Positions 14,348 to 30,005 of a stretch of 32,000 nucleotides of DNA are shown piece by piece. Origin of the DNA: Delftia acidovorans NBRC 14950 (GTDB taxonomy: Bacteria; Pseudomonadota; Gammaproteobacteria; Burkholderiales; Burkholderiaceae_C); the NCBI RefSeq assembly GCF_001598795.1, contig NZ_BCZP01000027.1, forward strand, positions 1-32,000, read 5' to 3'. The translations under genes and the position numbers were made by a program. The notes under the pieces were generated by a model, which saw only the letters and a list, made by a program, of their open reading frames with translations, was not told where the DNA came from and ran no database searches. Each line of letters begins with the position of its first letter. Position 1 is the first letter of the stretch.

Positions 14348-16516
<2,169 letters not shown>

Positions 16517-16533
16517 TTCAGCTTCGACGCTGC

Positions 16534-16623
<90 letters not shown>

Positions 16624-16635
16624 ATGTGTCAGCAA

Positions 16636-16663
16636 ACAAGCGCCTTCCGAGGCGCTTTTTTGT
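16636..16663 (+). terminator. Rho-independent terminator after tRNA-Ser
   Basis: aagcgcc-ttccga-ggcgctt stem-loop followed by ttttttg. Confidence 0.8.
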
Positions 16664-16698
16664 TGTGCCCATCAATCTACCCATCATTGGATGAAGCG

Positions 16699-17223
16699 AT
16701 GGCAGGCTTAGCGAAACGACCTGGTTTCCATGACGACCAGGAGCGAACGACGCCCATGGGGTTGGTCCGCTACGGGTATGAGTTCTTGGAGTCTGCTTTC
16801 GTTATGTACGAGCGTGCGGCCCAGCCAAGACCTCCACTGGTTCCGTGTCCACCAATCCCAGTCTTGTATCTTTTGGGGCATGGGTTGGAGCTCACCTTCA
16901 AGGCTTTTCTACTGAGCAAGGGTGTCACTCTCAAGCACATTCGCTACGAGCTGGGCCATGATTTGGAGGGGGCATTCAGCAGCAGCAAGGAAAACGGCCT
17001 TGGCACAGTACTTCAATGGCAAGCTTCTGATGAGTCTGCGCTGACTTTGTTCAATGTGATGTACAAGGCGAAGGAGCTGGAGTACATAGTGACAGGAGCA
17101 AAGACCATCCCTTACTACCCACTGCTGCAGAACTTCTCTATCAAGCTGTTTGATGCGGTTGCTACCCCCATCGGCTTCCGGAAGCGTCTTGCCACGTGGA
17201 CCTTGGATGAGTCGCCAGTTTGA
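16699..17223 (+). CDS. Hypothetical protein, possible HEPN-domain protein
   Basis: Lower-GC ORF. The segment GHGLELTFKAFLLSKGVTLKHIRYELGHDLEGAF resembles the HEPN helix pattern (..E.aLKAlL...G......HDL..L) and contains an R-x4-H spacing (RYELGH). The start is uncertain: ATG 16699, or ATG 16756 preceded by AGGAG. The track ORF begins inside the tRNA and is trimmed. Confidence 0.5.
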   Translation: MAGLAKRPGFHDDQERTTPMGLVRYGYEFLESAFVMYERAAQPRPPLVPCPPIPVLYLLGHGLELTFKAFLLSKGVTLKHIRYELGHDLEGAFSSSKENGLGTVLQWQASDESALTLFNVMYKAKELEYIVTGAKTIPYYPLLQNFSIKLFDAVATPIGFRKRLATWTLDESPV

Positions 17224-17290
17224 CGTATTGCTGAGCATCGTCAGGTGCGATGGCTGGACGTTAAAGCTTTAACAAAGAATCAAAGAATCA

Positions 17291-17340
17291 AAACGCCCCG
17301 AAAACCCGCATGGATGCTGGGTTTCGGGGCGTTTCTGTTT
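17291..17340 (+). terminator. Rho-independent terminator
   Basis: aacgccccgaaaaccc / gggtttcggggcgtt long stem followed by tctgttt. Confidence 0.7.
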
Positions 17341-17463
17341 GATTAACAAAATTCAAACGGGGGAATTTTTTGCGCGTGCGGAACAGGGCGGCTTAGGCCG
17401 GCAAGGGCTGTGGACTTCGGTCCACCCACTGCCCTACGATCACCAGACACCAAGGAGGCATCG

Positions 17464-17898
17464 ATGATTAAGGTCTACGTGGACACAGGGGGCGAGATGC
17501 CGGGTCTGAAACACCTCAGGGCGCGAGGCTTGGCGGGTTCGGTCCATTTCCCTTATGAGCAACGCCTCAAACGCATTGACACGACTGCAAAGCCATCCAA
17601 TCTGTCTTGGGGCGGCAGCGCGGCGTCTCATGCCGATCTCGCAGGCATGTCTTGGTCCGACACTGGCGAGAAGCCGATGCATGCGGCGATCGCAAAGGTT
17701 ATTGGCGCGCACAACGTGGCCGACGTTCAACACCTAGCCTCTGCCCATGCGGCCGGCTGCGACGCTATGCTCACCTCCGACAAAGGCGACATCTGGCGTC
17801 ACCGCGACGAGCTGCACGCGCTGCTCGGCATCCGCGTCTTTCATTCCGCCAGCGAATGGCCAGATTTCGTGGTTTTCTGCGAGAACAGCGCCTCCTAG
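17464..17898 (+). CDS. Hypothetical protein, possible PIN-like nuclease fold
   Basis: Strong RBS (AAGGAGG 6 nt upstream). N-terminal MIKVYVDTGG and C-terminal DVQHLASAHAAGCDAMLTSDKGDI match the spacing of conserved acidic residues in PIN-like domains. This is by-eye only. Confidence 0.55.
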   Translation: MIKVYVDTGGEMPGLKHLRARGLAGSVHFPYEQRLKRIDTTAKPSNLSWGGSAASHADLAGMSWSDTGEKPMHAAIAKVIGAHNVADVQHLASAHAAGCDAMLTSDKGDIWRHRDELHALLGIRVFHSASEWPDFVVFCENSAS

Positions 17899-18004
17899 CA
17901 CCCGCGCCCTCTCCCTTTGCTGGCCCGACAATGCCTCTGAGGCGCGTCAGCCAGGCTCAGGCGCTTACGATCAGGCTCCCCTATCACCGAACGATGGAGT
18001 GCAA

Positions 18005-18295
18005 ATGGAGCAATCTCAGGACTACAGGCTTGTCCTCTCTGCCAGGATTTCAGCGCTGGAGAAGGTTGTGGAGCAATTGGCTGTCCAGCAACTATCTGGA
18101 ATGGACAACGCGGCGCAGCTGGTGGCGGAGATGCGAAGGGCGGCGATTGCTTCTTTGGAGATCGCACCGATGAACACAGGCGGCGTCCATCTCACGCCTC
18201 AGCAACAAGAGTGGCTCAGAAGAGAAAACATCCAGAGCAAGCACCAGACGGAAAAGCTCTTTTCTGCAGTGGAGCGCTCTTTGAGCACCAGCTAG
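18005..18295 (+). CDS. Hypothetical small helical protein (96 aa)
   Basis: ATG preceded by GGAG and helical/coiled-coil-like composition. No family recognised. Confidence 0.45.
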   Translation: MEQSQDYRLVLSARISALEKVVEQLAVQQLSGMDNAAQLVAEMRRAAIASLEIAPMNTGGVHLTPQQQEWLRRENIQSKHQTEKLFSAVERSLSTS

Positions 18296-18306
18296 CCCCG
18301 AACAAG

Positions 18307-18343
18307 CAAAAGCCCCGCTGGGCGAGCCATGCGGGGCTTTGTT
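18307..18343 (+). terminator. Rho-independent terminator
   Basis: aaaagccccgc / gcggggctttg stem with a 12-nt loop. Confidence 0.6.
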
Positions 18344-18362
18344 GCGTCTGGGCCTGCGGTAG

Positions 18363-18503
18363 TTACGCGCGCACGCCCTTGACCACTGCGAATGTCTGCG
18401 GGTAGGGGATCACCACATCAGCGCGGACGTGGCAGGCAAAGCCGATTTCGCCGGTGGATGTGAATACCTCGCGCAGTAGTTGGATTCTCACGTTCTCGCG
18501 CAG
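18363..18503 (-). pseudogene. Possible 3' gene remnant (C-terminal about 45 codons, no start codon)
   Basis: Open frame ...LLRENVRIQLLREVFTSTGEIGFACHVRADVVIPYPQTFAVVKGVRA* with coding-like third-position G/C bias. It has no ATG and its upstream end runs into the H-NS terminator. Confidence 0.25.
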
Positions 18504-18520
18504 CAGGGAGTTGCAGCCAT

Positions 18521-18546
18521 AAAAAAGGCCCGCGTTGGCGGGCCGT
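18521..18546 (-). terminator. Rho-independent terminator after the H-NS-family gene
   Basis: Minus strand: GGCCCGC-CAAC-GCGGGCC followed by TTTTTTAT, 3 nt after the stop. Confidence 0.8.
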
Positions 18547-18548
18547 GC

Positions 18549-18830
18549 TCAGATCTCGAGGGCCTTGCGGTCCTTGCCTTCAATCCAGCGCGGCGGTTTG
18601 CCCCGGCCGGTCCAGGTGGCTCCGCTGGCGGGGTCGCGGTATTTGGCCACGCCAATGCTGGCGGACTTGGCCTTGCCGGTGCTGAAGATGTCATCCTGGG
18701 TCAGACCGAACTGCTCGACGAGTTCGCGGACCTTGGCGATGACTCCGCCTTTTTCCGCCTTCAGGGTGGCGGCGATCTTTGCCTCAAGCTCGGCCTTCTG
18801 CTGGAGGAGGGTTTTGTAATCTGCTGTCAT
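18549..18830 (-). CDS. H-NS-family nucleoid-associated / xenogeneic-silencing protein
   Basis: N-terminal coiled coil (LLQQKAELEAKIAATLKAEK) and C-terminal DNA-binding motif YRDPASGATWTGRGKPPRW (TWxGRGxxPxW). Confidence 0.9.
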   Translation of the reverse strand: MTADYKTLLQQKAELEAKIAATLKAEKGGVIAKVRELVEQFGLTQDDIFSTGKAKSASIGVAKYRDPASGATWTGRGKPPRWIEGKDRKALEI

Positions 18831-18964
18831 GTATTCCTCATGGATAGTGTGCTACACAATGACGCATTCTATGGAGACAGGGCCCATGTCGCATGTGGGA
18901 CATCGTTGGTGTTTGCACCTAGCCTCTGCTCCGCCTGCCCCCAGGCGCTGTGCGCGGACCGGGC

Positions 18965-19324
18965 CTAGGCCTCTGCAAATTCGCGCCTGGCGCTGAAGTG
19001 CAGGATTTCGGAATCCTGCGCTCCCCCCTGTCTTTGAATGACGATGGTGCCGTTGGAATGCAGATAGATGCGGATGCCCGGCAGGGTGTCCGAATCCAGA
19101 TGGCAAGGGCTTTTGTCGAGGTTTTTCCAGCCATGTTCTGCGCACAGCGTGCGTTGCCGCATGCGATTGAGCAATTCCCGGCGAGCGCCAGCGCCTTCGC
19201 AGATGCGCATCCAGAGCAGCAGCAGCATGTCGTGTGCCTCCTGGCGGGATGAGCAGGGAGGCATGTGCTTCAACTGGTTCAGCAGGGTGAAGAACCGTTC
19301 CTCTGCGCTGATTTCGAGTGCCAT
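18965..19324 (-). CDS. Hypothetical protein (119 aa)
   Basis: Internal ATG (MALEISAEERFF...) preceded by AGGAGG. The longer track ORF to 19696 overlaps the next gene out of frame. Confidence 0.5.
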   Translation of the reverse strand: MALEISAEERFFTLLNQLKHMPPCSSRQEAHDMLLLLWMRICEGAGARRELLNRMRQRTLCAEHGWKNLDKSPCHLDSDTLPGIRIYLHSNGTIVIQRQGGAQDSEILHFSARREFAEA

Positions 19325-19475
19325 GTTTGCCTCCTGTGTGCCTGGATATGCATCAAAGTGTAGGCAGGCCCGGTTCCGCGAAGGTGCGGCGTTTGGCGAC
19401 AGCGCCGGTGGCGTTTTTTCCTGCGTGTTTGCAGGATTTCTGCCAGGGCGGCTGTCATGGCCCATGCCAGCCGTG

Positions 19476-19826
19476 TCAGTGCGACTGCATGCCCATGAGA
19501 TTGCACGACATGGCGCATTGCTGGCAGGCTGCCGCGCAGGTCTGGCAATGGTCGTGGGAATGCTTGCTGCATTCGTCGGCGCAGGCTTGGCAGATCTGGG
19601 CGCACAGGCGGCAGATGTCCGGCGCATGCGGGCTCTGGCGCGCCATTGCGGCCACGGCCAGTTCGCAGATCTGCGCGCATTCCAGGTCCTGGGCAATGCA
19701 GGCGGCCATCATCTGGACGTCTGACTCCTCCAGGCAGGCGGCGGCGCAGGTATTGCAGGCAATGACGCAGGCCTGGCAGGCGTCCATGCAGGCCTTGTAG
19801 TCGATGGCAGGTGGGGTGGTATTCAT
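19476..19826 (-). CDS. Cysteine-rich four-helix-bundle copper-binding protein (DUF326 / Csp3-like), no signal peptide
   Basis: 19 Cys in 116 aa arranged as repeated CxxxC/CxxC spacings on predicted helices (ACMDACQACVIACNTCAAAC... CRLCAQICQACADEC...CQTCAAACQQC). GGAGAA RBS. Confidence 0.8.
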   Translation of the reverse strand: MNTTPPAIDYKACMDACQACVIACNTCAAACLEESDVQMMAACIAQDLECAQICELAVAAMARQSPHAPDICRLCAQICQACADECSKHSHDHCQTCAAACQQCAMSCNLMGMQSH

Positions 19827-19906
19827 GGCAGTTCTCCAGGAATGAGGGAGTGAAGTCGCGCAGGGCGTTCTTCCTTGGCCATTCGCTGGCAGCTATCCGC
19901 ACCAAA

Positions 19907-19930
19907 GAAAACGCCCCGCGAACGGGGCTG
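19907..19930 (-). terminator. Rho-independent terminator after the PRC-barrel gene
   Basis: Minus strand: GCCCCG-TTCG-CGGGGC followed by GTTTTCTTT. Confidence 0.75.
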
Positions 19931-19955
19931 TGTCAAAGACCGCAAGGGTCGGGAT

Positions 19956-20312
19956 TTACAGGTAGGGAACGCCGTAGTAATCGTTCACGCGGCGGCCATA
20001 TTCATCGGTGTATGCCGGAGCCGTATCGCGCTCGTAGCGGGGCGCGTTGTCCAGTTGCTCACGCGTCAGCGACACCACGTAGCCATTCATGTTGGGCTCG
20101 TACTTGAGGGATTCCCAGGGCAACGGATAGCGATCCGTGCCGATGCCCAGGAAGCCGCCGAATTCCATGACGGCATAGCGCACCTTGCCGGACAGCTTGT
20201 CGATCATCAGCGTGTCTATGGTCCCCAGCTTGTCGCCTGCCGGGTTGTAGACATTGGTGCCGCTGACGGTTTCAGAAGAAATGACGCTCGATGCGGTGTT
20301 GGGTGTGACCAT
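19956..20312 (-). CDS. PRC-barrel domain protein
   Basis: GTNVYNPAGDKLGTIDTLMIDKLSGKVRYAVMEFGGFLGIGTDRYPLPWESL is the typical PRC-barrel pattern. Confidence 0.85.
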   Translation of the reverse strand: MVTPNTASSVISSETVSGTNVYNPAGDKLGTIDTLMIDKLSGKVRYAVMEFGGFLGIGTDRYPLPWESLKYEPNMNGYVVSLTREQLDNAPRYERDTAPAYTDEYGRRVNDYYGVPYL

Positions 20313-20714
20313 GACGTTCTCCAGTGAGTGGGTTTGTGCTGACCCGCCAGCGCGGTGCGTCTGGCGGCTGAGCGATGCGGCTTTGAATGGGGCGCGGTAG
20401 CCGGCCTGTCAAGAAAACCTGTGCATCGCCTGGCGAAGTCGAAGCCTGTGTGCTTCTGGGTTCTAGCTTAGGACGGCATCTGCGGGCACCGGGTAGTCTG
20501 GCCGCCGCGACGGGCGTAGGAGGTGCCTTGGGCGGCGGAGGCCAGTTCCTACGAGCCCCTGTAGTCAAGGTCGGCGGGGCTGCGGGCCTTGGCTGACGCG
20601 GGGCAGCAGCCTGGGCCGGCTGCGGCGCGGCAGGGCGAGGCGTACAACAAAACGACAGGGCAATGAAGCGCAGGCAGTCCCGCATGCGTGTGGCATGCCC
20701 CGAAGGAGAGCCCC

Positions 20715-21576: not shown

Positions 21577-22218
21577 TCAGGGCGAGCTGGCCGTGAAGGT
21601 GACCTGCCCGGTGTAGGTGCCTGCCCTGCGGGAGGCCAGGTTGGCATAGGACAGGGTCCAGTTCGCCGTGCGCTGGGTGACCAGCCCCGCAAAGGCGGTG
21701 GCCACCACGTTGACCGCTGCGCCCGTTCCCGTATTGGGTATCAGCGGCGCGGGCAGGTTGCTGTCGCTGGTGGCGATGGTGATCTCCGACAGCGGGATGG
21801 TATTGGCCCCGCTGGCCAGCGCCGTGGTGGCGGTGGCGCGCAGCGTGACCTGGCCTGCGTTGCTGCGCACCTCCACCGGCAGCACATTGCCGCTGGGCGT
21901 GATGCTGAAGCTGGGGGCCGCGCCGCTCCAGTTCACCGAGGTGTTGCTGCCCGCCACGGGCGTGGTGGGCACGCCAGGGATGGACGGGGCGAGCACAAAG
22001 GCCACGCTGCTGGTCGTGCCGCCGGGCGTGGGCCATGTGCCGTCGCCTATGCGAAAGAAGATGAACTTGTCGATGGCGATGGTGAAGTCCAGGTTCACCG
22101 AGGTGCTCAGCGGCACCAGCAGGCTGGGGCCTGTGGTGCTGGACGCCGCATGCACGGTGTGGCCCAGGCCGCCCAGCGCCATGGACAGGGCCAGCCACGC
22201 CATCGGCCTGGTTGCCAT
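21577..22218 (-). CDS. Secreted pilin-like subunit paralog F (213 aa)
   Basis: Signal peptide (..GHTVHA|ASS). It shares SIPGVPTTPVAGSNTSVNWSGAAP with the protein at 24123-24734. The C-terminus AGTYTGQVTFTASSP resembles the G-x-Y-x-G-x-V-x-F terminal strand of chaperone-usher subunits. Its ATG overlaps the upstream stop (TGATG). Confidence 0.7.
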   Translation of the reverse strand: MATRPMAWLALSMALGGLGHTVHAASSTTGPSLLVPLSTSVNLDFTIAIDKFIFFRIGDGTWPTPGGTTSSVAFVLAPSIPGVPTTPVAGSNTSVNWSGAAPSFSITPSGNVLPVEVRSNAGQVTLRATATTALASGANTIPLSEITIATSDSNLPAPLIPNTGTGAAVNVVATAFAGLVTQRTANWTLSYANLASRRAGTYTGQVTFTASSP

Positions 22219-23024
22219 CACTTCAGTTCCACATCGATCTTGAAGCTGCCTTTTTCCCAGTCCAGGCTGCCCTTGGCCTTGACCGGATACGCGGGCTGCG
22301 GGGCGGGCTGGCCGTCTTCGCCCTTGGGCATGAGGGCCAGCGTGCGTGTCTGGCCGGGCAGTATGGGCGTGCCTTCCGGTACCAGTTCGAAGCGGCGGCC
22401 CTTGTTGTCCACGGCGTCCAGGCTTCCTTCCAGCCGGCCATGGGCATCGCCGGTGTTGCTGACGGTGACCAGGGCGCGGCGCGTCTTGCCGTCTTCGGCC
22501 ATGGAAAGCTGGCGAATGTCCAGCTGGGGCGCAGCGCCTCCCAGCGTCAAGTAGACGGCCACCGCGATGCGGCCCGTGACAGGCAGGCTCAGGCTGGCGC
22601 CGCCGCTGCGTATGACGGTCTGCTGCGCGGGCTCCACGCCTTCGATGGCGATCATGAAGCGGCATTCGCCGCGCGGCGCATCGGCAGGCGGCTCCACCTG
22701 GAAACGGAAGGCCTTCTTGCTGCGGCCTGCAATCGTGACGCTGCGCCGCTCCAGCAGCACCCAGGGCCGGCAACTGCCGGGCAGCAGTTCGTCGTGGTAG
22801 GTGATGTCGCCCGTGTCGGAATAGGTCCAGTCGATGGTGCGCATGGCCACCTCGGTGGGTGCCGAGGCCAGGTTGTGGATGTCCAGCGATTGGCCCGTGC
22901 GCGCACCCGGCTTGGCCGACAGCTCGAAACGCGAGGGCGCCACGGCCAGCTCGAACGGTGCGGCGGCGGCGCCGCTGCAGGCGATCAGAAGGGCCAGTGA
23001 AACGGCGATGGGAGGAGCTTTCAT
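22218..23024 (-). CDS. Candidate PapD-like periplasmic chaperone (268 aa), possibly lipidated
   Basis: Signal peptide with lipobox-like LIAC|S. First-strand motif VAPSRFEL..GQSLDIHN resembles the chaperone P-x-R-h-h-h...q-s-l-x-l-x-N pattern. The size suits two Ig-like domains. Its ATG overlaps the upstream stop (ATGA). Family assignment is by eye. Confidence 0.55.
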   Translation of the reverse strand: MKAPPIAVSLALLIACSGAAAAPFELAVAPSRFELSAKPGARTGQSLDIHNLASAPTEVAMRTIDWTYSDTGDITYHDELLPGSCRPWVLLERRSVTIAGRSKKAFRFQVEPPADAPRGECRFMIAIEGVEPAQQTVIRSGGASLSLPVTGRIAVAVYLTLGGAAPQLDIRQLSMAEDGKTRRALVTVSNTGDAHGRLEGSLDAVDNKGRRFELVPEGTPILPGQTRTLALMPKGEDGQPAPQPAYPVKAKGSLDWEKGSFKIDVELK

Positions 23025-23506
23025 GGCAGGGTCTCGATCTCGAAGTAGGACTCGAAGCTCAGTGCCGAGCCCTGGGTCAGGCGCAGCTCGGCGGGGTCGA
23101 TGTGCAGCGTGAGGTCGAAAACCTCGGCCATCCAGGGCGTGCGGACCACGCCGTTCCAGACCTGGACCCGATCGCCGGGCCGGCCCGTGCCGCCCGCAAA
23201 GACGCCATTGCCGCGCCACTGCACCTGCATGCCCGCAGGTGAGCGCAGGCCCGTGACCAGGGCGGGAATCACATAGAAGATGCGCGCCGTGCGGCCGACA
23301 TGGGGCGCCGTGGCCAGCCGGTATTCGATGCGTCCCATGGGCAGCTCCAGCAGCCGCTCGCCGACGACCCTGGCCCGGGCGAAGTCGCTGCGGACCTGGG
23401 ACCGGGGCGAAGCCGAGTCGTCCAGCCGCGCCACTTCGGCATGCGCCGCGAGGGCCGTGGCCCAGGCCAGTGCCATGCACAGGAGCGGCCAGGCCAGCGG
23501 CCTCAT
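23021..23506 (-). CDS. Secreted hypothetical protein (161 aa)
   Basis: Signal peptide (..ALAAHA|EVA). ATGA overlaps at both ends. No family recognised. Confidence 0.6.
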   Translation of the reverse strand: MRPLAWPLLCMALAWATALAAHAEVARLDDSASPRSQVRSDFARARVVGERLLELPMGRIEYRLATAPHVGRTARIFYVIPALVTGLRSPAGMQVQWRGNGVFAGGTGRPGDRVQVWNGVVRTPWMAEVFDLTLHIDPAELRLTQGSALSFESYFEIETLP

Positions 23507-24123
23507 ACCATCGATGCCGTGAAGCGCACGGTGCCCTTGTAGTTGCCGCCCGGGTAGACCACGTCGTTGTCGTAGGTGAACTGCAGCACGGTGCCGGTCA
23601 GTTGCCGGGACTGGAAAGTCCAGCCCAACGCAGGGCAGAGGATGCCCGTGCAGAACGAAGCATTGGCGTTGTAGCTGGCGATGGTCTGGCTGGCGCTGGC
23701 GGTGAAGCGGCCGCTCTGTATGTCGCCGGAGGCGGCGGTGTCGTTGCCGGTGGCCACCCAGCTGATCTTGCTGAAGGGAATCGTCGCGCTACCGCAGCCT
23801 CCCGACTGGCATGCCAGGGCGGTGCTCGAATCGACGACCAGCGTCACGGGCCTGGAGATCGCCGTGCCCAGCATGGGGCGTGTGGGCGCCACGGAGATGC
23901 CGATGCTGGGCGTGCCCGTCACAGGGGCCGGCGTGAGGCCGACATTGGCCCCCGTGACGCTGAAGGCCACGGTATCGACCGTGGCGCCGGCCGTGCCCAC
24001 GCGCAGCGTCAGGCTGTAGTTGAGGGGATCGTTGTCGGTCACGATGGTGAAGACGGCCTGCACGGGCGGCACGGCAACGGCAAGGGCCGCTGCGGCCAGC
24101 AGGCGAGGCAATGCCTTGTCCAT
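23503..24123 (-). CDS. Secreted pilin-like subunit paralog C (206 aa)
   Basis: Signal peptide (..PPVQA|VFT). It shares LTLRVGTAGATVDTV with LLRVGSTNTTVDTV of paralog B, has four Cys, and has the C-terminus GGNYKGTVRFTASMV. Confidence 0.7.
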   Translation of the reverse strand: MDKALPRLLAAAALAVAVPPVQAVFTIVTDNDPLNYSLTLRVGTAGATVDTVAFSVTGANVGLTPAPVTGTPSIGISVAPTRPMLGTAISRPVTLVVDSSTALACQSGGCGSATIPFSKISWVATGNDTAASGDIQSGRFTASASQTIASYNANASFCTGILCPALGWTFQSRQLTGTVLQFTYDNDVVYPGGNYKGTVRFTASMV

Positions 24124-24734
24124 CAGATGCCCTGGGCCGTATACGTGATGACGTTGGTATAGGTATTGGCAGCCCAGCTGGCCGGCGTACCTCCCAGCGC
24201 ATACGCCCAGGTTCCCGTCGCAACCACGTTGGAGGGGAACGAGGTGGATGCGCAGGCACCCAGATTGGGCCCGGGGTGGGGCAGGTTACCGGTGGTCGTG
24301 ACGGTGAAGTCCGCGTTGGCGGGGCCGCCCGTGGCATTCCAGGCGCCGACCGCGCAGTTGATGGTGCCGGCGCCGGCATTGGTCCAGGCATAGACCGTGA
24401 GCGTGGCGGCAGCCGAGGCGGTGGCCACGGTGGGCGCGGCGCCGTTCCAGTCCACGTTGGTGTTGTTGACGGAGGCCAGCGGCGTGGTGGGTACGCCGGG
24501 GATGCTCAGCGTTGAGGTCCAAGTCACCGTGTCCACCGTGGTATTGGTCGAGCCCACGCGCAGCAAGATGAGCTTGGGCACGGTCACGCTGAGGTTGACC
24601 TTGGCCTGGGCCGTGATGGTTCCGGTGCCCGATCCGTACTGGCTCTCGGCCATGGCAGGCAACGCGGTCAGGGCCAGGCCGAGGCCGCCGAGCGATGCGG
24701 CCAGCAGGCGTTGGGCGATGGGTGTTCGGTTCAT
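24123..24734 (-). CDS. Secreted pilin-like subunit paralog B (203 aa), first subunit gene
   Basis: Strong RBS AAGGAGA and signal peptide (..LPAMA|ESQ). The N-terminal alternating strand TITAQAKVNLSVTV resembles a donor strand. Also has SIPGVPTTPLASVNNTNVDWNGAAP, two Cys and the C-terminus NTYTNVITYTAQGI. Confidence 0.7.
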   Translation of the reverse strand: MNRTPIAQRLLAASLGGLGLALTALPAMAESQYGSGTGTITAQAKVNLSVTVPKLILLRVGSTNTTVDTVTWTSTLSIPGVPTTPLASVNNTNVDWNGAAPTVATASAAATLTVYAWTNAGAGTINCAVGAWNATGGPANADFTVTTTGNLPHPGPNLGACASTSFPSNVVATGTWAYALGGTPASWAANTYTNVITYTAQGI

Positions 24735-24803
24735 GGAATCTCCTTGGATGGAACGGGTTGCCTGGGAAACCTGTGCGCCTCAATCACTCACTCAGTCAGT
24801 CAT

Positions 24804-27155
24804 TCACTCGCCCACCTTGACCACGGCAATCGACGCCGAGGCCTGGCCGCGCAGGGGCACGTGCACGCTGCTGGTGTTGTCGCCGGAGGCGCCCCAGGGC
24901 AGCGGTACGCTTTCCTGGGTGAGCGACAGCCGGTGGTGGCCCGTGGGCACCACCGGGAATTCGAACTGACCATCGCGGTCGGTCACCGTGCGGTAGCGGC
25001 CGTCAAGCACCACCTCGACGCCGGCCACGCCCACCTCGCCCGCCTGCTGTTCGCCGTCGCGGTTGGCGTCGTAGAACACGCGGCCGGACAGGCTGCCGCC
25101 GCCCACGCCTTCACCGGGTGCGCCTGCGGCCGCATAGGCCGTGCCCGCGCTGCCTTCCCAGCGCAGGTAGACATAGGCGGTCTTCTCGTCGCTGCGGTAG
25201 AGGTTGGGCAGGGAAGAGGGCGTGGGCAGCAGCGAGGACCGGGCCTGGTTGAAGTGCGCCATGAAGCCCATGCGCCAGCCCCAGCCCAGTTCCTTCTCGG
25301 CCGACAGCGAGCCCGACAGGCCCCGGCTGGTGTAGAGGCTGCCGCTTTGCGAGGTGTAGCGCAGGTTGCCGGCCAGCTGCAGCCCGCTTTCCAGCCAGTA
25401 GCGCCATTGCAGCCCGGCCGTTGGATAGTTGCGCGACATGCCGCCGCTGCGGTCGCGCGCATAGCCCAGCGTGGTGGTGAGCTCGGACCGCAGCGTTGCC
25501 TGGCGTGCACCAGCCCAGTCCTGCTCCCACTGCACCTCCTGGCCCGTGGCGGAGGAGTCGCCCAGCACGATGAGCTCGTTGCGCCGAACGGTCAGCATGA
25601 AGCGGCTGCGCGGCCAGTCGAAAAAGCGGGTCTGGTAGAACGCGCTGCCATAAAGGCTGCGCGATTGGCCGCCGCCTGCGGTGCCCGCATCGTTGCGCGT
25701 CTGGTAGGCGCTGAAGCTGCCGCCCACGGCCGTGTGCCGGTCGAACTGGTATTGGGCATTGCCATTCGCCCCCAGGCGGCGGTAGCCCGACAGTTGAAAG
25801 CCTGCATCCTGCGCCGTGGTTTGCGGCGTGCGTTCGTAGTCCAGCCCCATGCCCCAGCTCAGGCGGGTGACATGGCGGTCCACGCGCCAATAGGCGCCGC
25901 GCGCCGCGCTGGACAGCGCGTAGTCGCCAAAGTGCAGCTGGGGCTGGGCTGCATGCAGGCCGAATTCATGGCGGTAGGCGCCCGCGCGCGCGCTGGCCTC
26001 GATGAACAGGCCCTGGGCGCTGCGGCCCTCCGTGCCGGCGGTGCCTGCCGCTGGAGAGGACAGGGGCGCGCTGGTACGGCTGCCCAGCAGCGTGGTGCGG
26101 AGCCTGAAGTCGCCATCGCGCAGCACGCCGCGCCCGTAGCCCAGCGAAGCGGCCCAGCTGGTCACGCGCTTGCTGCCCAGGCCCAGGGCGGAGCCGGGGT
26201 CGTATTGCGTGTCATCGCCGGGGTAGTGCCTGGGACTGTAGTAGGCGGGAATATCGTCGGCCTGGTCCAGCTGGAAGGCGGCAAACCAGGGGCCATCCAG
26301 CCGCACGGTGGCGCCCAGCCAGCCCAGCGTGCCCTGGTTTTTCTCGAACCCGGGGTAGGGCCCTCCCGTGAGAAGGCCGCGCTGGCCGTAGCCCGCGCGC
26401 ATGTCCAGATCCGGGCGGAAGATGCGCGCCGAGGCGCCGCGCACCGTGGTCGAGCCCAGCGACAGCCGGTAGTTGCGCGCCAGGCCATCGGTCAGCTCGC
26501 TGTAGAGGTCGCCCACGGCCGTGTCGGCAAAGGTTTGCGTGGTCAGCGGAAAGCCAAGGTTGCGCAGCGTGAAGCGCTCGCTCGTGGCTTGCCGGGCATA
26601 GCCCAGGCCGCCAATACTCAAGCCGCCAGTACCCAGGCCGCCCATACCCAGGCCATTGCCAAAGTTGTCGCCGCTCAGGTGCCGGCCTTCGGCCTGCAGG
26701 GTGAACTCGCCGTAGTTCAGTGTCTCGCGGCGGTATTCGAGGCGCTGGCCGATTTCGGTGGCGCGCTGGCGGCCATGGCCGGTGGTGCGGGATTCGCCCA
26801 GGCCCAGGCGGCTTTCCACCACCCAGGCGCGAAAGCCCTCGGGCTGCTCGGCTTCGGGCTCGGCGGCAGCGGACTGTGCGATCTCGTCCGGACCCATGAA
26901 ACGGTCCTGGTAGGCAGGGGCGGCCCCTTCGGAGAGTGCCTTGAGCCGGGCCTGCTCGGCCTGGTCGCGGTCCAGGGATTCGATGCGTGCCTCAGCCATG
27001 GAGGTACCGGCAACGGCCGCCGAAGAAGGTGTTTGCGCCTGTGCGCCGCATAGAAAGACGGGAGCGGCTGCCAGGCTCCACCCAAGGCACGCGAACGGCA
27101 GGCGCGACCAGACTCCAGCGGGGCCGGCAACGGTCCGCGGCAGCGTTCGAATCAT
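24804..27155 (-). CDS. Large outer-membrane beta-barrel-like protein with C-terminal SdrD-B/Cna-B (carboxypeptidase-regulatory-like) domain; candidate export/assembly platform
   Basis: Signal peptide (..LCGAQA|QTP) and an acidic Ala/Glu-rich linker. About 600 aa of alternating aromatic/Gly strand-like repeats (RLEYRRETLNYGEF, GLDYERTP, SLYGSAFYQTRFF, GLQWRYWLE). Then GRVFYDANRDGEQQAGEVGVAGVEVVLDGRYRTVTDRDGQFEFPVVPTGHHRLSL. The ATG at 27155 is preferred over the TTG at 27158. Confidence 0.75.
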   Translation of the reverse strand: MIRTLPRTVAGPAGVWSRLPFACLGWSLAAAPVFLCGAQAQTPSSAAVAGTSMAEARIESLDRDQAEQARLKALSEGAAPAYQDRFMGPDEIAQSAAAEPEAEQPEGFRAWVVESRLGLGESRTTGHGRQRATEIGQRLEYRRETLNYGEFTLQAEGRHLSGDNFGNGLGMGGLGTGGLSIGGLGYARQATSERFTLRNLGFPLTTQTFADTAVGDLYSELTDGLARNYRLSLGSTTVRGASARIFRPDLDMRAGYGQRGLLTGGPYPGFEKNQGTLGWLGATVRLDGPWFAAFQLDQADDIPAYYSPRHYPGDDTQYDPGSALGLGSKRVTSWAASLGYGRGVLRDGDFRLRTTLLGSRTSAPLSSPAAGTAGTEGRSAQGLFIEASARAGAYRHEFGLHAAQPQLHFGDYALSSAARGAYWRVDRHVTRLSWGMGLDYERTPQTTAQDAGFQLSGYRRLGANGNAQYQFDRHTAVGGSFSAYQTRNDAGTAGGGQSRSLYGSAFYQTRFFDWPRSRFMLTVRRNELIVLGDSSATGQEVQWEQDWAGARQATLRSELTTTLGYARDRSGGMSRNYPTAGLQWRYWLESGLQLAGNLRYTSQSGSLYTSRGLSGSLSAEKELGWGWRMGFMAHFNQARSSLLPTPSSLPNLYRSDEKTAYVYLRWEGSAGTAYAAAGAPGEGVGGGSLSGRVFYDANRDGEQQAGEVGVAGVEVVLDGRYRTVTDRDGQFEFPVVPTGHHRLSLTQESVPLPWGASGDNTSSVHVPLRGQASASIAVVKVGE

Positions 27156-27764
27156 CAACCAAGATCCCTGCTTTATTCATCGGATGCCAAGCCATCTGGC
27201 CAAAACAACTGATCACAAAACCGCGGAAAATGGCTGAATGCGTGCAGCCACCAATTGAGCCCTGCAAATACCGGCGCTGCACTTCAAAGACCGGCCGTTG
27301 TCAATGGTGTGCCGAATGAGAGGTATTCAGGGTGAATATCATCGTTCCCTAAATGGCATGGTTTATCCAGTAGGACGACATGCTGCCGGATGGTAGGGGA
27401 AATGGTGATGCCATTCGATGTTCATCTGTGGAGCTGCGGTGCCTGGCTGGCATTGCCCAGAGGGCGGTTGGCGGGCTTTGCTTTTTGGCCATGGATGGGT
27501 TTCAGGTTTTCTATTGATAGCAATGAATCATTTGTTTTTCATGCGGCAATAGAGGCTGCTGGGCGTTATCTCCGTATTCGGGCAATGCATCTGTTGGAAA
27601 ACGAGGGTTCTCATCAGATTCCGGCTGCTGGAGAATCACGGAATGGCGCAACTGAAGTGCGCCAGGTTCTGATTGGTTTTTGGACTGGTATCAGGCCAGG
27701 TTCATTGATGCAGGCTAAAGCACCTGCACCAATGCAAGCTGCCGCAATCATTTGCCCTGTCTTC
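27156..27764 (-). promoter_or_regulatory. Long AT-richer leader/promoter region of the fibre-like operon
   Basis: About 600 bp without a convincing host-like ORF. It is visibly lower in G+C than either flank. The promoter was not pinpointed. Confidence 0.5.
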
Positions 27765-28445
27765 ATGAACTCTCAGGCGCATCACAGGCAAGGCCAACGC
27801 AGACCCCGGGCACCCTGGAGGGCGCTCGTGGTCATGGCGTTGGCTGTCGTTGTGACCCTGGTGGCAGGCCTGTACCCCTGGAATGCCCCGCAGCATGGCA
27901 AGGCGGCAAGCCGCATGGAAGGCTTTGCAGGCGGCGCGTCCCTCATGACCAAGAAGCGCCAGTTCCATGTGGTCCAGCGGCTGAAGACCCACCGCCTGGC
28001 CGAAGCCGAGCGGCGCCAGTTGCTGGCCCATGACACCGGCGTGCGGAATGTGCGGGAGGCGTGGCAGGCACGGGAGGTGCGAGAGTTGCGTGCGTTGTCA
28101 GAGGTGCGGGAGGTGCGCGCGATGGCCGGCCCGCTCTCAGTCCACCAGCGCCTGTATGGCCTGCAACTGCGCCGCCAGCCCGGGCCGCGCGGCTGGAAAA
28201 GTCTCCTCGAAGGCGGCGGTGCCTATCGTGAAACCCGCGGCACCGCTGGCAAGCACGGCCGCGATGCGTTCGCTGCGATCAATGGAGCCGGCCACGACCA
28301 CGGGTTTGTCCACCGCATCGCAGACCGCCTTGATCAGGGCCGGCACGTCGCCCCGGAAACGGTAGGCCAGCAGGTCCAGGCCATGAACGCCCTCCAGCCC
28401 CGCGATGCGGCGCGCGCTGGCCACGATGTCCTCGGCCGGCCCTGA
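27765..28445 (+). CDS. Uncertain ORF: small membrane-anchored protein candidate
   Basis: From ATG 27765 there is a basic N-terminus, a TM helix (ALVVMALAVVVTLVAGLY) and a charged helical segment. Third-position G/C bias is strong across 27800-28136. However, the frame only closes at 28445, about 309 nt inside the convergent gene. Confidence 0.3.
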   Translation: MNSQAHHRQGQRRPRAPWRALVVMALAVVVTLVAGLYPWNAPQHGKAASRMEGFAGGASLMTKKRQFHVVQRLKTHRLAEAERRQLLAHDTGVRNVREAWQAREVRELRALSEVREVRAMAGPLSVHQRLYGLQLRRQPGPRGWKSLLEGGGAYRETRGTAGKHGRDAFAAINGAGHDHGFVHRIADRLDQGRHVAPETVGQQVQAMNALQPRDAARAGHDVLGRP

Positions 28446-29849
28446 AAGCACGCTCGGATGCCCGCTGATCCTGCCGGGAAACGGATAGTAGGCAATGCCG
28501 CTGCCGCGCAGCACGGGCAGCACCGCCTCGGGGCGCGTGCCGCCCATGAGAACGTCCACCCCGAGCTCGACCGCCGCGCGGGCCGAAGCCACCTCGCTGG
28601 CCTCGTCCAGGCTGACGACTTCCAGATAGACCCTGGCACCGCCCGCGCGGATGTCCCGGGCCAGTTCGCGCAGCTGGGGCAGGGGCAGGCCTATGTCCTT
28701 GAAGCCCACATGGCGCACGCCCTGGGCCAGCACTTCGCGCAGACGCTCGCGCGCATCGGCAATGGTCTTGTCCTGCTGCGTGAGCATGAAGATGAAGTCC
28801 GGGCGCTGCGCCTGTCCGCTGGCGCCGGAGCGGCCCGCCTGCACCATGGCCGCCGCCTGGCGCAGCGCGCAGGCCAGGCTGGCATGGTCCGCACGGCCCG
28901 TGCCGGCGATGTCGAAGGCCGTGCCGTGGTCCACCGAGGTGCGCACGAAGGGCAGGCCCACGGTAATGTTCACGCCCTGCTCGACGCCCAGGTACTTCAC
29001 GGGAATCAGCCCCTGGTCATGGTATTGGGCGACCACCACGTCGAACTCGCCCCGGCGTGCCCGCATGAAGACCGTGTCGCCCGGCCAGGGGCCGTTGGCG
29101 TCTATGCCTTCGGCCCGTGCGGCTGCAATGGCGGGGATGATCACCGAGCGGTCCTCGTCCCCGAACAGCCCGTTCTCGCCGGCATGCGGATTGAGCCCCG
29201 CCACGGCCACACGGGGCCGGGCGATGCCGAACGCCCGGCAGGCCCGGTGCGCAAGGCGGATGGCACGCAGTTCGTTGTCCGGCGTGACTGCGGCAATGGC
29301 CTGCTGCAGCGGCACATGGATGGAGACCAGCAGCACCCGCAGCTCGTCATTGGCGAGCATCATGGCGAAGTCGCGTGTGCCCGAGCGCTCGGCCAGCATC
29401 TCGGTATGGCCGGGGTGGGGGCAGCCCGCGGCGCGCAGCGCCTCCTTGTGGATGGGTGCGGTCACCAGGCCTGCGACTTCGCCGGCCAGGGCCAGGTCGA
29501 TGCCGCGCTGTATGTAGGCATGGCAGGCGGCCCCGGCGCGCGCATCGATGCGTCCCCAGGCCAGGTCCGCGGGCAGCCGGTCCCCGGTCTGGAGCACGAA
29601 GAGGGTGCCGGGTGGCACGGTGGCGGGAACCTGGGCCGGCGTATCGATGGCGTGGATGCGCGGCTGCACGCCCAGCATGTCGGCTGCCCGCTGCAGCCGC
29701 CCCGTGTCGCCGATGACGAAAAAAGGCGCACGGGGCCGGGCGGGGTCCATGGCCAGTTTGACGATGATCTCGGGGCCTATGCCCACGGGATCGCCCATGG
29801 TGATGGCCAGGGGTGCGGGGGCGATGGCGGGGGCTTCATTCATGGTCAT
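28137..29849 (-). CDS. PdxA-family NAD-dependent dehydrogenase (4-hydroxythreonine-4-phosphate dehydrogenase-like) fused to a C-terminal ~230-aa alpha/beta (TIM-barrel-like) domain of unknown function
   Basis: PdxA motifs TMGDPVGIGPEI, HPGHTE, GLNPHAGENG, YHDQGL and TSVDHGTAFDIAG in the first ~335 aa. The rest has repeating beta-alpha units (FIFMLTQQD, HVGFKDIG, VYLEVVS, VDVLMGG, VVVAGSI, GFTIGTA). Start at ATG 29849 or 29843; the track start at 29894 is GTG. Confidence 0.8.
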   Translation of the reverse strand: MTMNEAPAIAPAPLAITMGDPVGIGPEIIVKLAMDPARPRAPFFVIGDTGRLQRAADMLGVQPRIHAIDTPAQVPATVPPGTLFVLQTGDRLPADLAWGRIDARAGAACHAYIQRGIDLALAGEVAGLVTAPIHKEALRAAGCPHPGHTEMLAERSGTRDFAMMLANDELRVLLVSIHVPLQQAIAAVTPDNELRAIRLAHRACRAFGIARPRVAVAGLNPHAGENGLFGDEDRSVIIPAIAAARAEGIDANGPWPGDTVFMRARRGEFDVVVAQYHDQGLIPVKYLGVEQGVNITVGLPFVRTSVDHGTAFDIAGTGRADHASLACALRQAAAMVQAGRSGASGQAQRPDFIFMLTQQDKTIADARERLREVLAQGVRHVGFKDIGLPLPQLRELARDIRAGGARVYLEVVSLDEASEVASARAAVELGVDVLMGGTRPEAVLPVLRGSGIAYYPFPGRISGHPSVLSGPAEDIVASARRIAGLEGVHGLDLLAYRFRGDVPALIKAVCDAVDKPVVVAGSIDRSERIAAVLASGAAGFTIGTAAFEETFPAARPGLAAQLQAIQALVD

Positions 29850-30005
29850 TGCTGAAGGCTCAATCGATGGAGGTACTTTGCATGAAAATCGCACTGCAGA
29901 AAATCGATATGGATTCAGTATTCAGTTGATCAAAAGTCAATTGAAATTTCTCTCCACTCCCTTTCTTCGATGTGTCCGATGTGTCCGATGCCGCCCTCCA
30001 GTCCC
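29850..30005. promoter_or_regulatory. AT-rich divergent control region between the PdxA-fusion gene and a LysR gene
   Basis: Contains tandem attcagt attcagt, the palindromes TTGATCAA and CAATTG, and a T-N11-A dyad TGATCAAAAGTCA typical of LysR boxes. Confidence 0.5.

Follow-up and report, generated by a model that had tools for sequence, protein, structure and literature searches.

A candidate operon for the assembly and export of a surface structure in Delftia acidovorans, encoding pilin-like subunits and a homolog of Gram-positive WxL-interacting proteins

Organization of the operon

Six co-directional genes, called here A to F, lie on the minus strand between positions 21577 and 27155 of the 32,000 nucleotide (nt) stretch of Delftia acidovorans NBRC 14950 DNA analyzed (NZ_BCZP01000027.1; the window). 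They are interpreted, with a probability of roughly 55%, as an operon for the assembly and export of a surface structure made of WxL-like/pilin-like subunits, by a non-canonical route resembling the chaperone-usher pathway. That the structure is an actual donor-strand fibre is held with less confidence than the assembly and export system. Profile comparison shows E, a periplasmic protein with two immunoglobulin (Ig)-like domains, to be significantly, if remotely, homologous to the WxL-interacting proteins (WxLIP; DUF916 plus DUF3324) of Gram-positive bacteria; the three subunits are paralogs, A is a large outer-membrane protein, and the whole set recurs in many Burkholderiales.

Gene A (24804-27155) encodes the outer-membrane protein, 783 amino acids (aa) long when read from the ATG at 27155. 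Secreted subunits of pilin-like/WxL-like type are encoded by B (24123-24734; 203 aa), for which no Pfam family is available, and F (21577-22218; 213 aa), whose conservation is the highest among the three, and a secreted paralog by C (23503-24123; 206 aa). D (23021-23506) is a secreted orphan of 161 aa, and E (22218-23024) the two-Ig-domain protein of 268 aa, a candidate chaperone. Stop and start codons overlap by 1-4 nt at the B/C, C/D, D/E and E/F junctions, a pattern of translational coupling. Coordinates and open reading frames (ORFs) match those of the original prediction, an earlier reading of the same DNA made from the sequence alone. That every product carries a Sec-type signal peptide had also been claimed, and a simple heuristic based on hydrophobicity and cleavage site agrees for 6 out of 6: all N-termini feature positive charge, a hydrophobic core of about 12 residues and an A-x-A-type cleavage site. 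By the same heuristic, none of the six products has a transmembrane segment after the signal peptide. Current annotations call all six proteins hypothetical or give them generic domain names; a Delftia protein is 98% identical to A, and a D. acidovorans protein 99% identical to F.

Protein E is a homolog of WxL-interacting proteins

The E family comprises 1807 clusters at 50% identity (E-value ≤ 1e-3). A profile made up of 54 diverse members retrieves from the PDB the Enterococcus faecium protein EfmWxLIP1 (9i25_C, 9i1y_A) at an E-value of 1.3e-6. Profile-profile comparison by hhalign was carried out with eight WxLIPs which, as the 11 small WxL proteins considered below, come from annotated Enterococcus, Lactococcus, Lactiplantibacillus, Melissococcus and Vagococcus plasmid loci. 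E and the WxLIPs align over 208 columns across both DUF916 and DUF3324 (probability 97.6%, E-value 2.8e-12), and the score of 90.5 compares with 13.5±2.5 for column-shuffled targets and 16.7 for a reversed target. Matches to PF06030 are found in 19 of 50 E members, all below threshold, the best score in the family being 24 bits vs. a gathering value of 27.3; one member matches PF11797. Since the Pfam gathering thresholds are not reached, the relation is one of remote homology, and not of Pfam membership.

The Gram-positive proteins carry a hydrophobic segment at the C-terminus in 8 cases out of 8, the E homologs encoded by the fetched loci in 0 out of 86; E thus looks like a soluble periplasmic version of WxLIP. 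The signal peptide of Delftia E includes a lipobox-like LIAC at residues 13-16 (22977-22988, minus strand). The same feature is present in only 10 of the 86 homologs, and the notion that E is a lipoprotein was discarded on these grounds; cleavage by signal peptidase I is probable, lipidation of the Delftia protein being possible.

E had been described in the original prediction as a candidate PapD-like chaperone, the link to WxLIP being missed. A relation to PapD could not be detected: PF00345 and PF02753 do not match E, a single E member out of 50 matches PapD_N at 0.056, and the comparison with six E. coli chaperones yields a hhalign probability of 9.5%, with the two profiles out of register. 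Some homologs of E are named PapD chaperone, fimbrial chaperone or fimbrial biogenesis chaperone in their source annotations (JGI, NCBI).

A hairpin located between two core strands of E, EGVEPAQQTVIRSGGASLSLPVTGR (residues 128-152; 22569-22643, minus strand), features the alternating hydrophobic pattern S-L-S-L-P-V, and is nearly invariant in close homologs and variable in the wider family. It aligns to a segment of the DUF916 domain of WxLIP1. According to a confident AlphaFold prediction, a hairpin in WxLIP DUF916 provides the strand which completes the beta-sandwich of the WxL domain (Hassan et al. 2023, PMC10599100). Such an arrangement amounts to donor-strand complementation, though it does not go by that term. 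Residues 128-152 of E would be the equivalent of this hairpin and, by analogy, a candidate donor strand.

Proteins B, C and F are paralogous subunits

The three proteins of about 200 aa had been recognized as paralogs, and the comparisons made here bear this out. B and F are aligned by BLASTP at an E-value of 3e-16, and hhalign of family profiles connects C to F (99.5%) and B to C (97%). Two motifs are conserved over an alignment of 32 diverse subunits, h-h-L-R-V-G at the N-terminus and A-G-x-Y-x-G-x-V-x-(F/Y)-T-A-x-x-(P/L) at the C-terminus, the latter containing the G-x-Y-x-G-x-V-x-F-T-A strand by which the three proteins had been said to end. Other shared motifs are I-P-x-S-x-I, in the middle of the proteins, and W-T-F-x-Y, ahead of the C-terminal A-G-x-Y-x-G-x-V-T-(F/Y)-T-A-x-x-P. 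C is distinguished by a conserved pair of cysteines (CxSGGCG) and by an IPFSxISW motif, and is devoid of the long N-terminal segment found in B and F. Internal repeats are absent from the subunit alignment.

None of the 32 subunits, nor six further homologs, matches the fimbrial and WxL families of Pfam (PF00419, PF05229, DUF4402, PF13731) at E-values ≤ 5, a result in line with the reported lack of spore-coat-U and DUF4402 signatures. The subunit profile finds no relative in the PDB. AlphaFold2 models F as a beta-sandwich with a predicted local distance difference test (pLDDT) value of 75, in which the N-terminal residues 31-52 are not confidently placed. The top 50 PDB matches retrieved by Foldseek with this model are nearly all pilins joined by donor-strand exchange (AbpA, CfaB, CS17, FimA/F/G, PapA/E, SafA, CupE, Csu).

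Two sets of proteins were compared with the F family by hhalign. The 13 E. coli pilins give a probability of 38% and a score of 31.6, the 11 small WxL proteins a probability of 55%, a P-value of 1.2e-4 and a score of 36.3 over 92 columns, co-linear to the C-terminus; in global mode the latter probability rises to 84%. Both scores exceed the backgrounds provided by shuffled targets (12±2), a reversed target (20) and pairs of unrelated beta-sandwich families (14-24). In the alignment with the WxL proteins, VEVRSNAGQVTL (VEVRSNAG-QVTL) falls on the first WxL motif, VQVTDxRGxxGWxL, and AGTYTGQVTFTASSP on the second, AxxYxTTLxWxLxxxP. The literal Trp-x-Leu residues are replaced in the subunits, though both motif positions align. 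Three homologs of F are named WxL domain-containing protein in UniRef, and PF13731 does not match them; a PDB query with one small WxL protein found no WxL chain or relative. B, C and F are probably pilin-like beta-sandwiches and remote relatives of WxL proteins, the second link being suggestive.

Protein A is predicted to be a large beta-barrel

The AlphaFold2 model of A is of moderate confidence (pLDDT 75.7; predicted template modelling score 0.72). The signal peptide (residues 1-40, approximately) lies in a disordered N-terminus and is followed by two conserved helices (residues 63-96), a predicted beta-barrel (residues 109-670) and a C-terminal beta-sandwich of SdrD_B/CarboxypepD_reg type (residues 686-780, approximately; 24816-25100), all encoded, as the gene, on the minus strand. 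The barrel consists of 26 consecutive long strands according to DSSP; neither an inserted plug domain nor the N-terminal domain of ushers is present in the model. As the number of strands is even, both termini, and hence the C-terminal sandwich, are placed by topology on the periplasmic side.

The match to PF17210 (SdrD_B; residues 689-747, 1.4e-8) is the sole significant Pfam or NCBIfam match in the operon. The same region of A hits the SdrD B domain in the PDB, at 2.9e-6 with the single sequence and at 1.9e-7 with the family profile, and this domain is all that the A profile finds there, no relative of the barrel being detected. The original prediction saw in the large outer-membrane protein none of the motifs of PapC/FimD-type ushers, and PF00577 is indeed unmatched at E-values ≤ 1; a 55-sequence A family aligned by hhalign with six E. 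coli ushers gives a probability of 0.1%. Foldseek places FimD and PapC first among the structures similar to the A model (E-values 2e-12 to 1e-8), with template modelling (TM) scores of 0.27-0.44. The result supports a predicted barrel of very large size to which a sandwich domain is appended, and falls short of establishing homology to ushers.

The start codon of A deserves comment. The NCBI ortholog of A in Delftia is 731 aa long and covers 93% of the query, consistent with translation from the internal Met53 (ATG 26999). Starting there the protein would lose its signal peptide, which is kept if translation begins at ATG 27155 or at TTG 27158. Since the long form keeps this peptide and is spanned over 100% of its length by homologs of 750-770 aa, the public annotation of A is probably truncated at the N-terminus (26999-27155).

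Distribution and gene order

Genomes were scanned with a narrower alignment of E, the wide alignment being too divergent for this use. Relatives of E were found in at least 485 species-representative genomes, mostly of Burkholderiales. The best 79 loci belong in large part to Comamonadaceae and other Burkholderiales, and in a few instances to Thiolinea, Steroidobacteraceae and Usitatibacteraceae. Of these 79 loci, 62 combine A, D and E with two or more subunit genes, and the neighbourhood is conserved across Comamonadaceae and beyond. The order ABCDEF is found in 39 loci; variants include ABBCDEF, ABCDFE and tandem duplications, and the number of subunit paralogs varies from two to five per locus. 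Variovorax, Comamonas, Xenophilus, Ramlibacter, Hydrogenophaga and Acidovorax are among the genera endowed with the module. As the same module recurs in other genera, the six genes are not a chance set of ORFs. Flanking genes vary from genus to genus.

In divergent loci the subunit genes come first, followed by D, when present, E and A, one of the arrangements being FF(C)(D)EA. A very distant locus is metagenomic (L099), and its E is only about 25% identical. Five subunit-like genes, whose products are 140-170 aa long and end in ...GTYxxTVxYTLTAP, precede E and an A-like gene. The A-like protein (787 aa) has two C-terminal SdrD_B/CarboxypepD_reg domains, and does not match PF00577 at E-values ≤ 1. 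Genes for A, E and the subunits hence remain linked through changes in gene order, down to about 25% identity.

The module also occurs in adjacent copies. Comamonas sp. JUb58 (L021) hosts two ABCDEF sets in tandem, and in two Hydrogenophaga/Burkholderiaceae loci (L067 and L070) an ABCDFE set is followed by a divergent set of the subunits-E-A type. Side-by-side copies of this kind point to duplication and diversification of whole modules.

The orphan D accompanies the module in most of the loci from Burkholderiales, and features two conserved motifs, RLDDSASPR and FESYFEIE. Neither D nor 22 homologs match any Pfam family above the curated cut-off; a sub-threshold match to DUF4148 (E-value 0.0036) covers residues 9-50, in the signal peptide. 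The D profile finds no relative in the PDB. D was also considered as a diverged subunit or chaperone, and both assignments were rejected at hhalign probabilities below 4%. Because a D-like gene is not recognizable in the metagenomic locus, subunits, E and A are seen as the invariant core of the module, and D as a lineage-restricted accessory.

Relation to chaperone-usher and other fibre systems

The operon resembles chaperone-usher systems (Fim/Pap, CFA/I, Csu/CupE) in many respects. A two-Ig-domain periplasmic protein is encoded together with several paralogous Ig-like subunits ending in G-x-Y-x-G-x-V-x-F-T, and a very large barrel carries a beta-sandwich at a C-terminus predicted to be periplasmic. 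FimD/PapC and donor-strand pilins are the best fold matches in the PDB. In contrast, none of the components belongs to these systems by sequence or profile. Pfam and NCBIfam were scanned with the six window proteins and with 50 homologs of E, 32 subunits and 22 homologs of D, at E-value limits of 1-5. PF00577, PF00345, PF02753, PF00419, PF05229 and DUF4402 are unmatched by the window proteins, the E homologs (the one PapD_N hit mentioned above excepted), the subunits and the D homologs; no usher, PapD, spore-coat-U or DUF4402 assignment emerges, and SdrD_B is found in A. Single-sequence PDB searches with A, E and F returned nothing useful on this point. The reference alignments of six ushers, six chaperones and 13 pilins, derived from the fim, sfm, yad, elf, yeh and yra loci of E. 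coli K-12, gave negative results for ushers and chaperones. The locus can thus be assigned to none of the described fimbrial classes, as had been proposed: A is not placed in the canonical usher family, nor the subunits in spore-coat-U or other fimbrial families. Fold searches with the structural models rank FimD/PapC first for A and donor-strand pilins first for F, at low TM scores.

The architecture of A sets it further apart. In ushers the barrel has 24 strands and holds a plug domain, and it is preceded by a periplasmic N-terminal domain and followed by two C-terminal ones. For A, a barrel of 26 strands is predicted, plug and N-terminal domain are missing from the model, and a helical segment is found at the N-terminus; a single C-terminal domain of SdrD_B/CarboxypepD_reg type is present, two in the metagenomic homolog. 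Moreover, the lineage of the chaperone-like E is that of WxLIP, the operons of Comamonadaceae begin with the barrel gene, and the orphan D is an extra component.

The set could alternatively be a very divergent chaperone-usher operon, of the archaic (sigma: Csu/CupE/spore-coat-U) or alternative type, drifted past detection by hidden Markov models. Besides the fold matches of A to FimD/PapC and of F to CfaB, CupE, Csu and Fim pilins, the hhalign probability of 38% between subunits and E. coli pilins, the names PapD chaperone and fimbrial biogenesis chaperone given to some E homologs, and the order of distant loci (subunits, chaperone, barrel, as in ordinary fimbrial operons) speak in favour of it. 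We consider it quite improbable, as the five families PF00577, PF00345, PF02753, PF00419 and PF05229 are silent also in the six further homologs, profile comparison with ushers (0.1%) and chaperones (9.5%, out of register) is negative, E is significantly homologous to WxLIP (97.6%), and the modelled A has 26 strands and neither plug nor usher N-terminal domain.

Most improbable among the explanations weighed is that the genes encode a functional amyloid (curli/Fap-like) or a nutrient-uptake system, A being a channel or porin and the small proteins amyloid subunits, accessory factors or substrate-binding proteins. The fapABCDEF and csg operons are likewise all-secreted sets with an outer-membrane channel, and the barrel of A has no assignable family. 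None of the six proteins, however, matches Fap, Csg or transporter families of Pfam and NCBIfam; the subunits lack imperfect amyloid repeats and are modelled as beta-sandwiches, E is an Ig-domain protein of WxLIP type, and no small protein resembles a solute-binding protein. The amyloid (Fap/curli) reading was rejected because of the missing repeats and family matches.

Donor-strand systems of other kinds are on record. Pam pili of the Candidate Phyla Radiation are recently described donor-strand-exchange pili with Ig-like pilins and two-domain PapD-like chaperones which, as WxLIP, have a C-terminal membrane helix; their pilins are reported as exclusive to the Candidate Phyla Radiation, and an outer-membrane barrel is not involved (bioRxiv 10.64898/2026.03.03.709456). 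Pam pili, likened here to the Delftia operon by description only, are a comparable non-canonical system, and an example of donor-strand assembly with chaperones beyond the classical pathway. In archaeal filaments (AbpA, 7ueg; Sulfolobus threads; cannulae), donor strands similarly connect one beta-sandwich subunit to the next. Of all Foldseek matches of the F model the best is 7ueg, and cannulae are also listed, all very weak (TM 0.26-0.29). Unlike the Delftia operon, these filaments are chaperone-free and involve no outer-membrane component.

Relation to WxL clusters

WxL clusters have been defined as sets of one WxLIP-type gene and at least two genes for secreted single-domain proteins of about 180 residues (PMC10599100), and the Delftia operon has one E gene and three small subunit genes. 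As in the Gram-positive WxL/Csc clusters, all components are Sec-secreted, E being homologous to WxLIP over both Ig-like domains; subunit motifs align, at a suggestive level, with the positions of both WxL motifs. One component (E) is clearly shared, a second probably so. Differences are numerous. The host is a diderm; E lacks the C-terminal transmembrane helix; a large WxL protein with adhesin domains, an LPxTG protein and a sortase are all missing; Trp-x-Leu is replaced and PF13731 silent in the subunits; the 783-aa barrel A and the orphan D are additional.

The property of WxL domains which has experimental support is non-covalent binding to peptidoglycan (PMC9772566, PMC10599100). The Delftia proteins might accordingly make up a periplasmic, envelope-spanning complex, in which B, C and F, stabilized by E, bind peptidoglycan and are linked to the C-terminal domain of A, the whole serving as an envelope tether or as a scaffold for some transport function of A. 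The homology of E to WxLIP and the weak WxL-like character of the subunits fit this view, as does topology: peptidoglycan is periplasmic in diderms, Sec brings all six products into that compartment, and A is predicted to have its C-terminal domain there too. On the other hand, a barrel of 26 strands is far bigger than required by an anchor, two to five subunit paralogs per locus and fold matches dominated by pilins better suit a polymer or a displayed array, and E has lost the membrane anchor, as expected of a diffusible chaperone. On balance a tether or scaffold appears rather unlikely.

A bolder version of the preferred interpretation, assembly and export of a surface structure, can be put forward tentatively. 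The operon might represent a diderm pathway separate from the classical chaperone-usher one and sister to the Gram-positive WxL clusters, in which a chaperone of WxLIP type hands donor-strand-deficient WxL-like subunits to a plug-less 26-strand barrel. If so, this would be a second Gram-negative lineage of chaperone-plus-barrel systems for surface structures, independent of the classical pathway and found in hundreds of environmental and opportunistic Burkholderiales (Delftia, Comamonas, Variovorax, Acidovorax) and in more distant taxa, with A as a novel kind of large outer-membrane translocon. For the first time, a bridge both evolutionary and mechanistic would lead from the poorly understood WxL/WxLIP clusters of enterococci, listeriae and lactobacilli to the donor-strand chemistry of pili, which is well understood; WxL clusters themselves would be chaperone-assisted donor-strand assemblies, rather than simple adhesins bound to peptidoglycan, and the function of WxLIP would become testable in a genetically tractable diderm. 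A literature search found no description of a Gram-negative system combining WxLIP/DUF916 and a barrel, or of this operon in Comamonadaceae.

A distant E-like gene (about 29% identity) was also spotted in a different setting (L101, 2266-4711), directly upstream of genes for T2SS-F and T2SS-G (pseudopilin), with no adjacent barrel gene. WxLIP-like proteins may be used in other envelope systems as well.

Proposed mechanism and points against it

The steps of the mechanism are all ones that we infer; the parts list, the homologies and the co-occurrence of the genes are what was observed. Once subunits have reached the periplasm by the Sec route, E would cap the incomplete sandwich of each of them with the strand of its conserved hairpin, a step modelled on the AlphaFold prediction for WxLIP-WxL pairs and on the known PapD-pilin mechanism. 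E-subunit complexes would dock on the periplasmic C-terminal domain of A, and subunits would cross the wide 26-strand pore, to be exposed on the cell surface or to polymerise there, donor-strand exchange being one possibility. The major subunit would be B or F. C, devoid of the long N-terminal segment and endowed with the conserved cysteine pair, would be a specialised subunit, located at the tip or at the base. D might act as a system-specific accessory factor (adaptor, initiator or terminator). Adhesion or interaction with the biofilm matrix is the likely biological role. The original prediction of a fibre pathway akin in logic to chaperone-usher systems is upheld as to the conserved, all-secreted set of parts; the formation of a fibre would be one outcome of the steps just listed.

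Several points weigh against the assembly and export of a surface structure. Donor-strand complementation, polymerisation and surface exposure are inferred, and binding of WxL domains to peptidoglycan would imply that subunits are periplasmic in a diderm cell. The link of F to WxL proteins, at a hhalign probability of 55% and with PF13731 silent for 32 subunits, is suggestive. Fold matches are weak for F (E-values ≥ 2e-3, TM ≤ 0.49) as for A (TM 0.27-0.44 against ushers), and both models have pLDDT values of about 75, denoting moderate confidence. Close behind FimD/PapC, TonB-dependent receptors are retrieved by the A model. The predicted lack of both plug and usher N-terminal domain means that gating and chaperone docking would have to differ in A from those of ushers. 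Lastly, D has no assignable role.

Flanking regions

The operon is separated from the upstream gene, a PdxA fusion, by a non-coding region of about 1 kb (27156-28136, minus strand), presumed to host promoter and regulatory sequences. Its G+C content is 57% vs. about 69%. No convincing ORF, Rfam family or sigma-70 consensus was found in it, and Rfam, promoter and terminator scans of the operon plus 1 kb upstream were likewise empty. The region may be a long regulatory region or an operon leader. In Variovorax and Comamonas (L001, L003, L004, L005) htpG (HSP90) is found upstream of the operon in divergent orientation, the other flanks being different; in the Delftia window the non-coding stretch of about 1 kb occupies the position of htpG.

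The upstream gene (28137-29894, minus strand) encodes a protein of 585 aa, in which a complete PdxA domain (residues 58-347) is joined to a C-terminal TIM-barrel-like region weakly matching NMO and His_biosynth, an unusual fusion for a dehydrogenase of the PdxA family.

On the other side of the operon, about 4 kb of DNA with lower G+C content (57-61%) come after a tRNA-Ser(CGA) gene (16534-16623), within the interval 16000-20500. The low-G+C stretch ends in two small genes, whose products are a DUF326 protein rich in Cys (19476-19826, minus strand) and a PRC-barrel protein (19956-20312, minus strand). The region may be an integrated island adjacent to the operon.

Long ORFs are found also on the strand opposite to the operon. 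A plus-strand ORF of 780 aa (24711-27053) is antisense to A, and B to F are overlapped by long ORFs of a similar kind. Conservation as proteins in other genomes is confined to the minus-strand frames, and the antisense ORFs are the usual stop-poor frames of DNA with high G+C content.

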